A DNA stretch of 42,124 nucleotides from a virus (IMGVR_UViG_2909282993_000003:1-42124); one strand, 5' to 3'; positions 4,529 to 42,124 are shown, counted from the first letter of the stretch. A program made the numbers and translations. Notes: a model not told the origin generated them from the letters alone.

Positions 4529-4586
4529 AAAAAGGGCGGCAGAGCAGTCACGGAGTAAAACTGATACCGCTAAACGCCACCAGAAA
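4529..4586 (-). ncRNA. dicF: DicF small RNA (ftsZ-targeting antisense sRNA) with intrinsic terminator
   Basis: Reverse complement reads TTTCTGGTGGCGTTTAGCGGTATCAGTTTTACTCCGTGACTGCTCTGCCGCCCTTTTT, differing at about two positions from the DicF sequence I recall; ends in a GC stem plus U-run. Confidence 0.85.
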
Positions 4587-11718: not shown

Positions 11719-12448
11719 ACATTCAAAAAAAAGCTAATCTTCTATAATAACGAAATTCAGCTGGCACAATTAAAGATTAATTGCCACCAATTTCTTGATT
11801 TTATAATTTTATCTAAATGTTTTTGATTAATCTAGTCCTAAAAGAAACCTACTGCATAAATATTTATGCTGATGACCCACTCCCTGTTCGTTAACACATA
11901 GCAACGTTAGTAATGCATCCTAAGTGATCAATATTTTTGCTAGCTTCATCTGCTCGCTCAAAGGGAACTATAATGTTGGCTTGCGTGTGACTTGGCATGT
12001 TTAAAGAAGTGCTGGTGGTGACTGGTTGCTGTTTTCCATTTCCACAGAACAAAATCATAGAAACTATACCCAGTAGTTGTATTGAATCACTGACGAGACA
12101 GCCTCATATTTATCAGGACTGGTGTACGTCCAATACAGGAGGTTGTGGTGCTGGTTCTCAAATGTGCGCTGGCTATTGCTGCTGTAATGGCAATTTATTG
12201 TCTTGCTGTTGTTCTTATGGATCACCTTTCTGATTGATTTCATATTGGCGAGGTAACGGTAGTTAAGTAGAATTGCTGCGGGTGCTTGAGGCTATCTGCC
12301 TCGGGCATCAACACCAAAGGCAGATAGAGAAAAGCCCCAGTTAACATTACGCGTCCGGCAAGACGCTTAACATTAATCTGAGGCCATATCTATGCTCTAC
12401 ACACGTAGGTTAGCCTCTTACGTGCCGAAAGGCAAGGAGAAGCAGGCT

Positions 12449-12604
12449 ATGAAGCAGCAAAAGGCGATGCTAATCGCCCTGATCGTCATCTGTTTAACCG
12501 TCATAGTGACGGCACTGGTAACGAGGAAAGACCTCTGCGAGGTACGAATCCGAACCGGCCAGACGGAGGTCGCTGTCTTCACAGCTTACGAACCTGAGGA
12601 GTAA
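12449..12604 (+). CDS. hokD: Hok/Gef family type I toxin (HokD/RelF-like)
   Basis: 51-aa product MKQQKAMLIALIVICLTVIVTALVTRKDLCEVRIRTGQTEVAVFTAYEPEE, a typical Hok single-TM peptide matching recalled HokD; upstream 9-bp perfect hairpin at 12292-12327 and a downstream GC hairpin plus intrinsic terminator, typical of hok mRNA folding elements. Confidence 0.85.
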   Translation: MKQQKAMLIALIVICLTVIVTALVTRKDLCEVRIRTGQTEVAVFTAYEPEE

Positions 12605-14477: not shown

Positions 14478-14843
14478 ATGACTGAACGCATAGAATTTGT
14501 TTTGCCTTACCCGCCGACGGTGAATACCTACTGGCGACGTCATGGCAATACGTATTTCATCTCGGAGGCCGGAAAGCGTTATCGCCGTGATGTGGCGCTA
14601 ATTGTTCGCCAGCAGCGGCTGAAATTAAACCTGTCCGGAAGACTGGCAATAAAAATTACTGCAGAGCCACCGGATAAGCGCCGCCGCGACCTGGACAATA
14701 TCCTGAAGGCACCACTGGATGCGCTGACGCATGCCGGACTACTTATAGACGACGAGCAGTTTGATGAAATCAATATTGTGCGCGGTCAGCTCGTTCCTGG
14801 TGGGCGGCTGGGGATAAAAATCACAGAACTGGAGTGCGCATGA
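14478..14843 (+). CDS. rusA: Holliday junction resolvase RusA
   Basis: 121-aa product with YPPTVNTYWRR and DKRRRDLDNILKAPLDALTHAG motifs, matching recalled RusA catalytic residues; start adjacent to the preceding stop. Confidence 0.85.
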   Translation: MTERIEFVLPYPPTVNTYWRRHGNTYFISEAGKRYRRDVALIVRQQRLKLNLSGRLAIKITAEPPDKRRRDLDNILKAPLDALTHAGLLIDDEQFDEINIVRGQLVPGGRLGIKITELECA

Positions 14844-15529
14844 ATAACCAGTATTTACAGTTTGTGCGTGAGCAGCTCATTATCGCCACCGCTGATTTGA
14901 GTGGGGCAACAAAAGGTCAGCTTGAAGCCTGGCAAGAGAATGCCATGTTCGATACAGGGCGTTACAGGCGTAAAAAAATCCGGTACCGCGATGAAGTGAC
15001 TGGAAAAATGATAACGCGGGATAATCCACCAATCCCGGGAAAGCAATCGCTGGCGAAGGGGATGTCAATTCCTCTGGTCAGTCCGGTTGAGTTTTCGACA
15101 TCATCGTGGCGGCGGGCGGTTCTGTCTCTTGAAGAACATCATAAAGCCTGGTTGTTGTGGTGTTACAGCGGGAGTATTTGTTGGGAATATCAGATCGCGA
15201 TAACACAGTGGGCGTGGAATGAATTTAATACTCAATCCGGTACCAGAAAAATTGCAGGGAAAACGCAGGAACGCCTGAAAAAATTAATCTGGCTGGCGGC
15301 GCAGGAAGTAAAAGCAGAACTTTTTGGTGGGGAAGGTTATGAATACCAGGAGCTGGCATTACTGGCGGGAGTGACAACTAAAAACTGGTCCAAAACATTT
15401 ACTCGTCACTGGGTTGCAATGAAACACATTTTTCACCGACTGGATAGTGAGGCTTTATTGTTTGTAATGAGAACACGTTCAAAACAAAAGGCGGCATTTT
15501 CAAAGCAAAGTGTTGCAAAAGCAGATTGA
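14840..15529 (+). CDS. Late-gene antiterminator Q-like protein
   Basis: ORF overlapping the rusA stop (ATGA); sits immediately upstream of a sigma70-like promoter and a strong intrinsic terminator, the Q-PR'-tR' arrangement; consistent in size with Qin-type Q homologs. Confidence 0.65.
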   Translation: MNNQYLQFVREQLIIATADLSGATKGQLEAWQENAMFDTGRYRRKKIRYRDEVTGKMITRDNPPIPGKQSLAKGMSIPLVSPVEFSTSSWRRAVLSLEEHHKAWLLWCYSGSICWEYQIAITQWAWNEFNTQSGTRKIAGKTQERLKKLIWLAAQEVKAELFGGEGYEYQELALLAGVTTKNWSKTFTRHWVAMKHIFHRLDSEALLFVMRTRSKQKAAFSKQSVAKAD

Positions 15530-15541
15530 AAGGCATATATT
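15513..15541 (+). promoter_or_regulatory. Candidate late promoter PR' (TTGCAA-17 nt-TATATT)
   Basis: Near-consensus -35 and -10 hexamers with a 17-nt spacer overlapping the 3' end of Q, followed about 55 nt later by an intrinsic terminator. Confidence 0.45.
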
Positions 15542-15594
15542 TCATGCAAATCTGATATTTTGCCGATTTTGTACGTGATGGCAAAAGCAAACAA

Positions 15595-15619
15595 AACCCG
15601 CCCACAAGCGGGTTTTTTT
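15595..15619 (+). terminator. Rho-independent terminator (tR'-like) downstream of the late promoter
   Basis: CCCGCCC-ACAA-GCGGG stem followed by a run of seven T. Confidence 0.6.
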
Positions 15620-15739
15620 GTGCCACTTATCTCGGATAGACATGGTGAATGCGCTGGTGGAGGAAGTAAGGGTAATTTTTAACCAGGTAATTCTTGAATG
15701 CTTGCAACATTGATTTCGTAACGTTATTATCCTGCGCCC

Positions 15740-15815
15740 GGCCCTTTAGCTCAGTGGTGAGAGCGAGCGACTCATAATCGCCAGGTCGCTGGTTCAAATC
15801 CAGCAAGGGCCACCA
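15740..15815 (+). tRNA. tRNA with CAU anticodon (Ile2/ileX-like or Met)
   Basis: 76-nt cloverleaf folded by hand: acceptor GGCCCTT/AAGGGCC, D arm GCTC/GAGC, anticodon loop CTCATAA, T loop TTCAAAT, 3' CCA encoded; closely resembles recalled host ileX. Confidence 0.85.
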
Positions 15816-15816
15816 A

Positions 15817-15893
15817 CCGCCACTGGCTCATCAGGAAAGAGCGTCAACCCTTTAAGTTGAGTGTGCGAGGTTCGAGTCCCCGGTGGCGGTCCA
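15817..15893 (+). tRNA. tRNA-like gene, anticodon ambiguous (loop CCTTTAA; reads UUU with a non-canonical C33); possibly degenerate
   Basis: Acceptor CCGCCAC/GTGGCGG, D arm GCTC/GAGC, T loop TTCGAGT, CCA encoded; T stem has one mismatch; anticodon loop lacks the conserved U33. Confidence 0.5.
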
Positions 15894-15895
15894 GT

Positions 15896-15971
<76 letters not shown>

Positions 15972-15974
15972 TAT

Positions 15975-16049
<75 letters not shown>

Positions 16050-16108
16050 GTCAGAGTCTTTCAGTCTGCGATGATGGGAAATCCCGGAGTGACTGAAAGA
16101 CGTTTAAG

Positions 16109-16181
16109 TTATGAATGATCGCCTTTTTTTGCAAAATTGCTGTGCAGAAATACTAACCTTCGGGCAGGCGATCATTCATAA
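16109..16181. repeat. Perfect 15-bp inverted repeat (TTATGAATGATCGCC / GGCGATCATTCATAA) with 43-nt spacer in the tRNA-holin intergenic region
   Basis: Read directly; preceded by a second hairpin (11-bp stems at 16056-16066 and 16091-16101) and followed by a terminator-like GC stem plus T-run at about 16256-16282. Confidence 0.6.
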
Positions 16182-16341
16182 GCACTCTGCTTTTATTCCG
16201 ATTAACTGTGGGTGGTTTGTTGGATAGAGTGCTTTCCTTACTGTATATATCGTTTCGCCCGCTTTTGCGGGCTTTTCTTTTCAAATCCCTTTCATTTCTC
16301 AGTGTAAAACTACGCCATCCGTTATTTGCGGAGGTGAGGCT

Positions 16342-16557
16342 ATGAAATCCATGGACAAAATTTCAACGGGCATTGCCTATGGCACCTCCGCAGGCAGTGC
16401 TGGCTACTGGTTTTTACAGTGGCTTGATCAGGTCAGTCCGTCACAGTGGGCTGCGATTGGTGTACTGGGGAGTCTGATTCTGGGCTTCCTGACTTATCTG
16501 ACAAATCTGTACTTCAAAATCAGAGAAGACAAGCGTAAGGCTGCACGGGGAGAGTAA
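16342..16557 (+). CDS. Class II holin / pinholin (phage 21 S-like) with dual-start motif
   Basis: 71-aa product [30 protein letters not shown]... with two TM segments; Met1 and Met4 form the dual-start (antiholin/holin) arrangement known for S21. Confidence 0.9.
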
Positions 16558-34133: not shown

Positions 34134-34678
34134 AAACGGGGGCTGAAGCCATCCGGGCGTTGTCCACACAGCTCCCGGCGTTTCGTCAGAAACTGAATGA
34201 CGGCTGGTATCAGGTGCGCATTGCCGGGCGTGATGCAGGTGAAACCGAATTATCTGCCCGTCTTAATGAGCCGCTGGCAAATGGTGCCGTGATCCACATC
34301 GTGCCGCGTCTGGCGGGAGCTAAAAGTGGCGGTGTGTTTCAGGTGGTGCTGGGGGCGGCGCTGATTGCGGTGGCATGGTGGAACCCTGTGGGCTGGCTGG
34401 GTGCCGCGGCTGTATCGGGCATGTATGCGGCAGGGGCCAGTATGATCCTGGGTGGTGTGGCCCAGATGCTGGCACCGAAAGCCCGGACGCCCACAGCGAC
34501 CAGCACGGATAACGGTAAGCAGAACACCTATTTCTCATCACTGGATAACATGGTTGCCCAGGGCAATGTTCTGCCTGTTCTGTACGGTGAAATGCGCGTG
34601 GGGTCGCGGGTGGCTTCTCAGGAGATCAGCACGGCAGACGAGGGGGACGGTGGTCAGGTTGTGGTGATTGGTCGTTGA
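34031..34678 (+). CDS. Tail assembly protein I
   Basis: N-terminus MAATHTLPLASPGMARICLYGDLQRFGRRIDLRV and C-terminus ...QEISTADEGDGGQVVVIGR match recalled lambda gpI very closely; overlaps the K 3' end as in lambda. Confidence 0.9.
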   Translation: MAATHTLPLASPGMARICLYGDLQRFGRRIDLRVKTGAEAIRALSTQLPAFRQKLNDGWYQVRIAGRDAGETELSARLNEPLANGAVIHIVPRLAGAKSGGVFQVVLGAALIAVAWWNPVGWLGAAAVSGMYAAGASMILGGVAQMLAPKARTPTATSTDNGKQNTYFSSLDNMVAQGNVLPVLYGEMRVGSRVASQEISTADEGDGGQVVVIGR

Positions 34679-41857: not shown

Positions 41858-42124
41858 ATGCTGCCGCAGCATAGCGATATTGAAATAGCCTGGTATGCTT
41901 CGATACAGCAGGAGCCGAATGGCTGGAAGACCGTCACCACACAGTTCTACATCCAGGAATTCAGTGAGCATATTGCGCCACTTCAGGATGCTGTAGATCT
42001 GGAGATCGCAACGGAGGAAGAAAACTCGTTGCTGGAAGCCTGGAAGAAGTATCGGGTGTTGCTGAACCGTGTTGATACATCAACCGCACCTGATATTGAG
42101 TGGCCGACTTCACCTGCAGAGTAA
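41858..42124 (+). CDS. Tail fibre assembly protein, C-terminal portion (likely 5'-truncated tfa)
   Basis: 88-aa ORF ending ...[36 protein letters not shown], the conserved Tfa C-terminus; shorter than a typical Tfa (about 190 aa). Confidence 0.6.

Follow-up and report, generated by a model that had tools for sequence, protein, structure and literature searches.

A conserved three-hairpin RNA cassette between the tRNA genes and the holin gene of enterobacterial lambdoid prophages

The 292-bp interval that separates the tRNA genes from the holin gene in a Qin-like lambdoid prophage of E. coli (positions 16050–16341 of the window, by which we mean the whole 42,124 nt stretch of DNA that was analysed) carries three hairpins, termed H1, H2 and H3 here, followed by a spacer and an intrinsic terminator. 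This cassette is well supported as a previously unannotated structured-RNA family of enterobacterial lambdoid prophages, and it is of a kind already known, namely a tRNA-operon trailer or non-coding RNA of the moron slot. Our preferred reading of its function, to which we assign a probability of roughly 45%, is that it specifies a stable processed non-coding RNA resembling a tRNA 3' external transcribed spacer (3'ETS), together with an insulating terminator that Q-modified RNA polymerase would read through. Around one in ten complete E. coli genomes carries the cassette, for which Rfam has no family and RefSeq no annotation. Should the trailer accumulate, it would represent a new phage-borne non-coding RNA family in the host regulatory network, and the second functional tRNA trailer after 3'ETS-leuZ; if it is cis-acting, it would bear on how lambdoid phages can express lysis genes from behind tRNA genes when tRNA processing cuts the late transcript. 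Either way, the alignment and structure allow the family to be annotated, and the hairpins are directly mutable.

The layout of the locus, in which all features lie on the + strand, agrees with a prior sequence-only reading that placed a non-coding, RNA-structured segment in the slot between Q and holin. The late-gene antiterminator gene Q (14834–15529; Pfam PF06323 Phage_antiter_Q, E = 5e-92), whose homologue is labelled antitermination protein Q in RefSeq, ends in a candidate late promoter pR' identified by consensus scan (TTGCAA-17-TATATT, 15513–15541), at the position expected from lambdoid phages, and a tR'-like intrinsic terminator (15590–15619, inverted repeat AACAAAACCCGC/GCGGGTTTTTTT) would close a short pR' leader RNA. 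Next comes a putative tRNA-operon promoter (TTGCAA-17-TATTAT, 15702–15730, followed by the GC-rich CCTGCGCCC and then the first tRNA), which was recognized by consensus scan and conservation, and four tRNA genes (15740–16049; ARAGORN, Rfam tRNA model 43–74 bits) reading CAU (Ile2/Met), an atypical UUU, Thr-UGU and Gly-UCC. Behind the cassette, a 5' UTR with the Shine-Dalgarno sequence GGAGGUG (16283–16341), invariant in close relatives, leads into a class II holin of the phage 21 (S21) type with the dual start MKSM (16342–16557; Pfam PF04971, E = 1e-35), which is followed downstream by DUF1327 and then lysozyme. Elsewhere in the window three Rfam families match above their gathering scores, DicF (4534–4585, − strand), sok (a hok/sok-type antitoxin RNA, 12280–12454, + strand) and IS009 (41881–42084, + strand), all of which fit with a Qin-like prophage.

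H1 (16056–16101) is built on a perfect 11-bp inverted repeat (16056–16066 with 16091–16101), just as the sequence-only reading had reported, enclosing a 24-nt loop with inner helices of 2 bp and 4 bp and the conserved loop sequence GCGAUGAUGGG...CCCGGAGU. H2 (16109–16181) had been described as a perfect 15-bp inverted repeat with a 43-nt spacer; the repeat is indeed perfect but measures 16 bp with a spacer of 41 nt (16109–16124 with 16166–16181), within which are an 8-bp inner stem (UUUUUGCA/UGCAGAAA), the apical loop AAAUUGCUG and a small CC-UUCG-GG arm. These two and the terminator were the structures listed previously and all three are present, but the list omitted the conserved H3 (16182–16234), which takes up most of the gap before the terminator and consists of an 8-bp outer stem (16182–16189 with 16227–16234; AGCACUCU/AGAGUGCU), inner helices and the conserved core GGGUGGUUUGUUGG. 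The outer stem of H3 abuts H2 with zero unpaired nucleotides between them. An unstructured AU-rich spacer (16235–16256), more variable than any other part of the cassette, precedes the intrinsic terminator (16257–16282), which the previous reading had described as a terminator-like stem plus T-run at about 16256–16282: it comprises a 6-bp all-GC stem with a 4-nt loop (GCCCGC-TTTT-GCGGGC, 16257–16272) and then TTTTCTTTTC, or in the transcript GCCCGC-UUUU-GCGGGC and UUUUCUUUUC. Inverted repeats of at least 11 nt lying within 60 nt of each other number 14 in the whole 42-kb window; the 16-bp repeat of H2 is the longest perfect one in the window, and two of the four perfect ones fall inside this 130-nt stretch. 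When the interval was folded, as the sequence-only reading had proposed, the + strand RNA 16050–16285 gave −84.8 kcal/mol (z = −5.9 against dinucleotide shuffles), and its predicted fold is a row of four independent hairpins.

Relatives were gathered by searching IMG/VR, and one genome for each species, for the patterns of the H2 loop and the H3 core, yielding about 100 true homologues (loci with L numbers below); among the matches listed from genome contigs for the 18-nt H3 core most were chance matches, and the taxonomic range given here is a lower bound. Far from being a conserved but unstructured spacer in these relatives, the interval retains its hairpins. Among 38 distinct H2+H3 sequences from at least five genera, 97.6% of alignment cells are paired, compared to 40–52% when the 3' partners are slid, and compensatory double changes occur at 10 pairs (1–7 when slid), with a covariation score of 0.266 (at most 0.118 when slid). 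H1 behaves likewise in 26 distinct homologues, with 96.6% of cells paired (38–48% slid), five pairs showing double changes (at most two slid) and a covariation score of 0.214 (at most 0.105). The compensatory changes affect four or five pairs of the outer helix of H2 and two of its inner helix (UA/UG/CG), while one pair of H3, stand-alone copies included, is seen as CG, AU, UA and UG; pairing is thereby kept across approximately 25% sequence divergence. Much of this covariation separates two or three clades, and therefore represents a modest number of independent events. The strand is also apparent, as G-U cells far outnumber A-C cells (137 vs 8), pairing reaches 98.0% on the + strand compared to 86.6% on the − strand, and with a covariance model of H3 (R1) the + strand reaches 69 bits but the − strand 15 bits. 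The G-U excess and the strand bias of the model thus place the structure on the RNA, in the sense of late transcription, and argue against a palindrome maintained at the DNA level.

Nucleotide diversity among close relatives, which is based on 15 distinct sequences and is indicative only, is 0 in H1, 0.003 in H2 and 0 in H3, compared to 0.008 in the tRNAs, 0.013 at holin third codon positions, 0.042 in the terminator, 0.054 at Q third codon positions and 0.057 in the spacer between H3 and the terminator; the low diversity extends to the holin and its UTR. These values contradict the previous suggestion that the segment is a scar of cargo exchange, since a scar would decay, whereas H1–H3 display a diversity of 0–0.003 against 0.054 at Q third positions and hold their pairing through compensatory changes. 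In the alignments of relatives the hairpin loops are less variable than the stems. The conserved loops, together with the retention of the cassette behind a dead tRNA in phage HK639, indicate a sequence-specific function that goes beyond that of a passive hairpin and beyond serving one tRNA.

The interval is present at ≥ 80% identity in 529 of 5426 complete E. coli genomes, always on the chromosome, with a median of one and a maximum of five copies per carrier genome (535 of the 5426 match at blastn sensitivity, and the core genome is without a copy); carriers include ETEC, ST131 and APEC strains. RefSeq annotates no feature under the interval in the E. coli copies listed. H1–H3 occur in lambdoid prophages of at least five genera (Escherichia, Shigella, Enterobacter hormaechei, Phytobacter ursingii and Yokenella regensburgei), phage HK639 has a version of the cassette that is 76% identical, and the Salmonella prophage Fels-1 carries H2 alone. 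With few copies, and with every sampled context lying in a phage late region, the cassette is not a dispersed palindromic repeat of the REP/BIME, ERIC/IRU or MITE kind.

Part of the evidence that the interval belongs to a tRNA operon comes from the sequence upstream of the tRNA genes. The promoter footprint TTGCAr-17-TATYAT, lying 9 nt from the mature tRNA 5' end, is kept in relatives including L008 and Enterobacter L185, in which the promoter spacer and the upstream DNA have diverged beyond alignment while the hexamers, the 17-nt spacing and the 9-nt distance are retained. Conservation of the footprint amid diverged DNA supports a genuine sigma-70 promoter at this position; the GC-rich discriminator is typical of stable-RNA promoters. 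No terminator was found by consensus scan between tRNA-Gly and H3, and the layout is that of a tRNA operon with a 3'ETS: promoter, tRNAs (15740–16049), trailer (16050–16256) and terminator (16257–16282), all on the same strand. Downstream, nearly all H2+H3 copies have an intrinsic terminator 14–31 nt after H3, in one of three unrelated sequences, which likewise speaks for an autonomous unit, and in relatives H1 or H2 closely follows the last tRNA, as befits a trailer. Given its conserved promoter, the tRNA operon can therefore be regarded as autonomous and the interval as its 3' trailer plus terminator. Two of the tRNAs in this operon, tRNA-Thr(UGU) and tRNA-Gly(UCC) (15896–16049), are 100% identical to thrU and glyT of E. 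coli K-12, and the similarity to the host operon thrU-tyrU-glyT-thrT-tufB ends exactly at the tRNA ends, which suggests that the phage took them over from the host recently or that they underwent gene conversion with the host genes; in view of the same boundary a host origin of the trailer was rejected. The second tRNA gene (15817–15893) is low-scoring at 43 bits and is called Lys(UUU) by ARAGORN and RefSeq, its homologue in L008 (5537–5609) is called Phe(AAA), and one phage record leaves the gene unannotated; it is an atypical tRNA-like gene whose anticodon call differs among relatives. A consensus scan upstream of the tRNA-less copy L140 found no promoter.

In the reading that we prefer, the tRNA operon would be a moron inserted between the late promoter and the lysis genes, with the interval as its 3'ETS plus terminator. 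Lysogens would transcribe the operon from the promoter 9 nt ahead of the first tRNA, and polymerase would proceed through the four tRNAs and H1-H2-H3 and stop at 16257–16282, so that this terminator would shield the holin from the tRNA promoter. Such a terminator is needed by a tRNA unit with its own promoter, since holin expression in a lysogen would be harmful. Processing of the tRNAs by RNase P and RNase E would yield a compact trailer RNA, about 230 nt long and resistant to exonucleases, and its conserved loops may then act in trans, as a small RNA, a sponge or the ligand of an RNA-binding protein, in the manner of STnc100/PasD or 3'ETS-leuZ. After induction, Q-modified RNA polymerase coming from pR' would pass both tR' and the terminator at 16257–16282 and enter the lysis genes; that Q-modified polymerase ignores terminators of this type is expected from established lambdoid biology. 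A small RNA was one of three suggestions made in the sequence-only reading and has become the best supported of them, being plausible in view of the covariation, the G-U strand bias and the neighbouring STnc100-type sRNAs. Hfq-bound sRNAs are also known to be encoded in the moron slot at pR' (PMC4104026; bioRxiv 10.64898/2026.05.13.724894).

Several known RNAs resemble the cassette in part. The closest in layout is 3'ETS-leuZ of the E. coli operon glyW-cysT-leuZ, which is likewise non-coding and located between the last tRNA and the intrinsic terminator of the operon, from which it is released by tRNA processing as we propose by analogy for the cassette. It is, however, a chromosomal sRNA sponge of about 50 nt, for which Hfq binding and the sponge targets RyhB and RybB have been demonstrated, whereas the cassette is phage-borne, about 230 nt long with three conserved hairpins, and shares no sequence with it. 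STnc100/PasD (RF02076) occupies the same slot between Q and holin, lies on the strand of late transcription and ends in an intrinsic terminator; it is the tandem neighbour of the cassette in HK639 and shares the slot with H2 in Fels-1. There is no sequence or model similarity between the two, and it is for PasD that Hfq binding has been shown. The tRNA cluster of phage T4 includes two stable, structured non-tRNA RNAs ('species 1' and 'species 2'), which are co-transcribed and co-processed with the tRNAs and whose function was long unknown; they belong to an unrelated phage lineage and lie within the cluster, whereas the cassette lies behind it. The lambda 6S and IsrK-IsrJ pR' leaders are also short non-coding late-leader RNAs made in lysogens and ending at an intrinsic terminator, but their counterpart in the window is the segment 15545–15618 upstream of the tRNAs, not the interval 16050–16341. 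This leader bears a weak resemblance to IsrJ/IsrK, sRNAs of Salmonella Gifsy-1 (22–25 bits, below the gathering score), and the HK639 copy (L001 2255–2327) scores 34.6 bits compared to a gathering score of 37; both appear to belong with IsrJ/IsrK to one class of pR' leader RNAs.

The search of RNA family models recommended by the sequence-only reading matched no family to H1–H3. With cmscan at E up to 10, none of the 4227 models of Rfam 15 matched inside 16062–16234; the two sub-threshold matches were confined to the surroundings of the terminator and at chance level, and no family reached its gathering threshold in the interval. Equally permissive searches with the HK639 and Fels-1 copies gave nothing for H1–H3, HK639 yielding sub-threshold istR, isrB and rsmX matches over H3 and the terminator (22–26 bits vs 35–56). 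STnc100/PasD itself has no match in the window at E ≤ 10, whereas its true copies in HK639 and Fels-1 score 52–138 bits, and when the PasA, PasC and PasD loci of EPEC E2348/69 were compared by blastn, all matches were at chance level. Mimicry of GcvB, with which a 10-mer (GGUCUGCGAU) and a G/U-rich core are shared, was rejected because local alignment did not exceed shuffled sequences in either sense, and complementarity to or mimicry of rRNA amounted to short chance-level matches. No targets for the conserved loops were found within the window. On comparison by eye with consensus sequences, a sigma-70 or sigma-54 promoter in the H2 loop, a LexA box in the spacer, a hammerhead-like three-way junction, an RfaH ops-like site in H3 and CsrA GGA motifs either did not fit or were not conserved across cassette types.

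Some of these results count against a non-coding RNA product, in particular the lack of target complementarity in the window and of similarity to GcvB, rRNA or the Pas sRNAs. Of the features of an Hfq-dependent sRNA, a terminator with U-tail, an AU-rich spacer and conserved loops can be seen, but the spacer and terminator are the least conserved parts; as they set the 3' end and in a classical sRNA would make up the Hfq-binding module, this also weighs against the reading. The spacer is non-homologous between cassette types. In many copies the terminator stem is eroded to 3–4 bp through G-to-T changes, and thus terminator strength probably differs between prophages. Among near-identical relatives the segment 16235–16282 is hypervariable, with GCGGGC changed to GCGGTT or GCGTTT and the T-run lengthened.

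The main rival, unlikely in our judgement but the most serious, holds that the hairpins work in cis on the processing or stability of the late and tRNA transcripts, without a product acting in trans. They might direct RNase E or RNase III to the tRNA 3' end and afterwards either shield the 5'-monophosphate terminus thus created on the downstream lysis mRNA from RNase E, or keep 3' exonucleases away from the tRNAs or moron mRNAs upstream. H1, H2 and H3 are separable and lie behind whichever tRNA or small gene is last in the slot between Q and holin. H1 or H2 starts 1–6 nt past the CCA of the last tRNA (Gly in the window, Ile2 in L121), in some loci the tRNA is followed directly by H2 without H1, and in Fels-1, L096 and L140 H2 comes directly past the stop codon of a small moron gene. 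This is the geometry of a 5'- or 3'-terminal protective stem-loop, such as is established for mRNA decay in E. coli. The internal architecture of H2 (16 + 8 bp around an asymmetric internal loop) presumably also resembles phage RNase III sites, which would favour action in cis. H2 occurs without H3 in L006, L121 and Fels-1, and H3 occurs alone, just behind the pR'-tR' unit or another terminator, in L128, L130, L153 and L155. Such stand-alone copies of H3 are often without a terminator and lie in the 5' UTR of the next gene (L128, L130), where they look cis-acting, and they therefore count both for this rival and against a non-coding RNA. Neighbours vary from at least five unrelated Q-type proteins or other morons upstream to several holin classes downstream; independence of Q type and holin type would be expected of a generic element of RNA metabolism, and the strong conservation of the hairpins compared to the terminator and spacer also favours this rival. 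However, a hairpin serving as a mere barrier could have any loop sequence, and here it is the loops that vary least; three different hairpins in fixed order exceed the needs of protection, and HK639 has kept the cassette behind a dead tRNA fragment. In this phage just the 3' 45 nt of tRNA-Gly are left ahead of H1 (L001 2443–2489), and the pairing of H1–H3 is intact; its single intact tRNA begins 8 nt behind tR' without a promoter of its own, so that the cassette could be transcribed there only through read-through from pR'. By inference, we regard a product acting in trans as more probable than elements acting in cis.

In a reading that we consider improbable, H1, H2 and H3 are three independent portable RNA 'genes' of an unrecognised class, which with the tRNAs and STnc100-type sRNAs would turn the late leader of enterobacterial lambdoid phages into an RNA-gene island. 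Their loops would bind a host factor (an RNase, RNA polymerase, Hfq, ProQ, CsrA or a tRNA-targeting defence nuclease) and act as a decoy or regulator rather than as a base-pairing sRNA, controlling the timing of lysis or protecting the co-encoded tRNAs. Independently of this reading, the slot is in effect a small RNA-gene island, a tandem array of terminator-ended RNA modules. In HK639 a bona fide STnc100 sRNA (RF02076, 52.6 bits; L001 2754–2959) lies directly downstream of the cassette, followed by further terminators, Fels-1 has three STnc100 copies in the slot (L294 773–986, 1187–1309 and 2310–2528), and in L121 H3 lies 1 kb upstream of tRNA-Thr, an STnc100-like piece and tRNA-Ile2, which are then followed by H1-H2-terminator. 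The HK639 record annotates four terminators between Q and holin.

We hold it to be less probable again that the cassette has no function of its own, being a hitch-hiking linker, a boundary at which modules recombine, a decayed tRNA, or a DNA palindrome kept by templated repair. It does sit at a mosaic junction, flanked on either side by a wide range of neighbours, it has been hit by several IS elements, and since the low diversity spans the holin and UTR its conservation may partly reflect hitch-hiking. Against this, compensatory changes hold the pairing over approximately 25% divergence, the asymmetry of G-U over A-C is a signature of RNA and not of DNA, and the elements are retained in at least five genera. 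Nor is there support for H1 as a decayed copy of the adjacent tRNA-Gly: its resemblance to the four tRNAs is not significant for any of them (p = 0.28), and the tRNA model does not detect it. The IS insertions in or at the edge of the cassette are independent (L099, L151, L033/L065, L069), with insertion points right after H2, just before H3, in the 3' arm of H3 and after the terminator, and the hairpins may be preferred IS targets.

Very unlikely, to our minds, is a put-like antiterminator RNA or an attenuator that decides the passage of polymerase into the lysis genes. The abutting H2 and H3, with a terminator within 14–31 nt in nearly all copies, superficially recall the put sites of HK022 and HK639, which are also two adjacent stem-loops upstream of terminators in a lambdoid transcript. 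However, put sites lie just downstream of early promoters in phages without N, whereas the cassette belongs to the late leader of Q phages, and the Q proteins encoded by these phages already provide late antitermination; moreover, a cis-acting antiterminator behind a constitutive tRNA promoter would lead to holin expression in lysogens. A putL-like RNA (34187–34312) is present in HK639 alongside the cassette, and the two differ in sequence and fold: the former folds as two unrelated stem-loops, by inspection has no evident sequence resemblance to H2-H3 and does not share their architecture, and the HK639 record annotates only terminators in this region. The attenuator put forward in the sequence-only reading is likewise unsupported, as the fold of 16050–16285 contains no predicted alternative antiterminator pairing, including pairing of H3 with the terminator; the four hairpins fold independently and the terminator is better explained as the end of the tRNA operon.

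The description of the interval as being without ORFs was nearly right, in that it is non-coding but contains mechanical ORFs of 38, 43 and 45 aa (the first two at 16111–16227 on the + strand and 16153–16284 on the − strand). That either of these two encodes a small protein can be set aside as scarcely credible: both exist, and 16153–16284 (−) is recorded as a 'hypothetical protein' in two phage records (ON470583 and ON470580), but neither, when searched, matched Pfam, no RefSeq gene covers them in the E. coli copies listed, just 23–30 of 39 close relatives have the three ORFs intact (43 aa in 30, 38 aa in 23; broken in 9–16) compared to 37 of 39 for the holin, the frame is destroyed because the H2 loop has a T-run that ranges between 6 and 9 residues, and the ORFs cannot exist in HK639-type copies.

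At the downstream border of the interval, a perfect 10-bp inverted repeat (16327–16336 with 16383–16392) pairs the holin Shine-Dalgarno sequence (UGCGGAGGUG) with holin codons 14–17, and may provide an sdi-like control of the holin/antiholin ratio or of the rate of translation.
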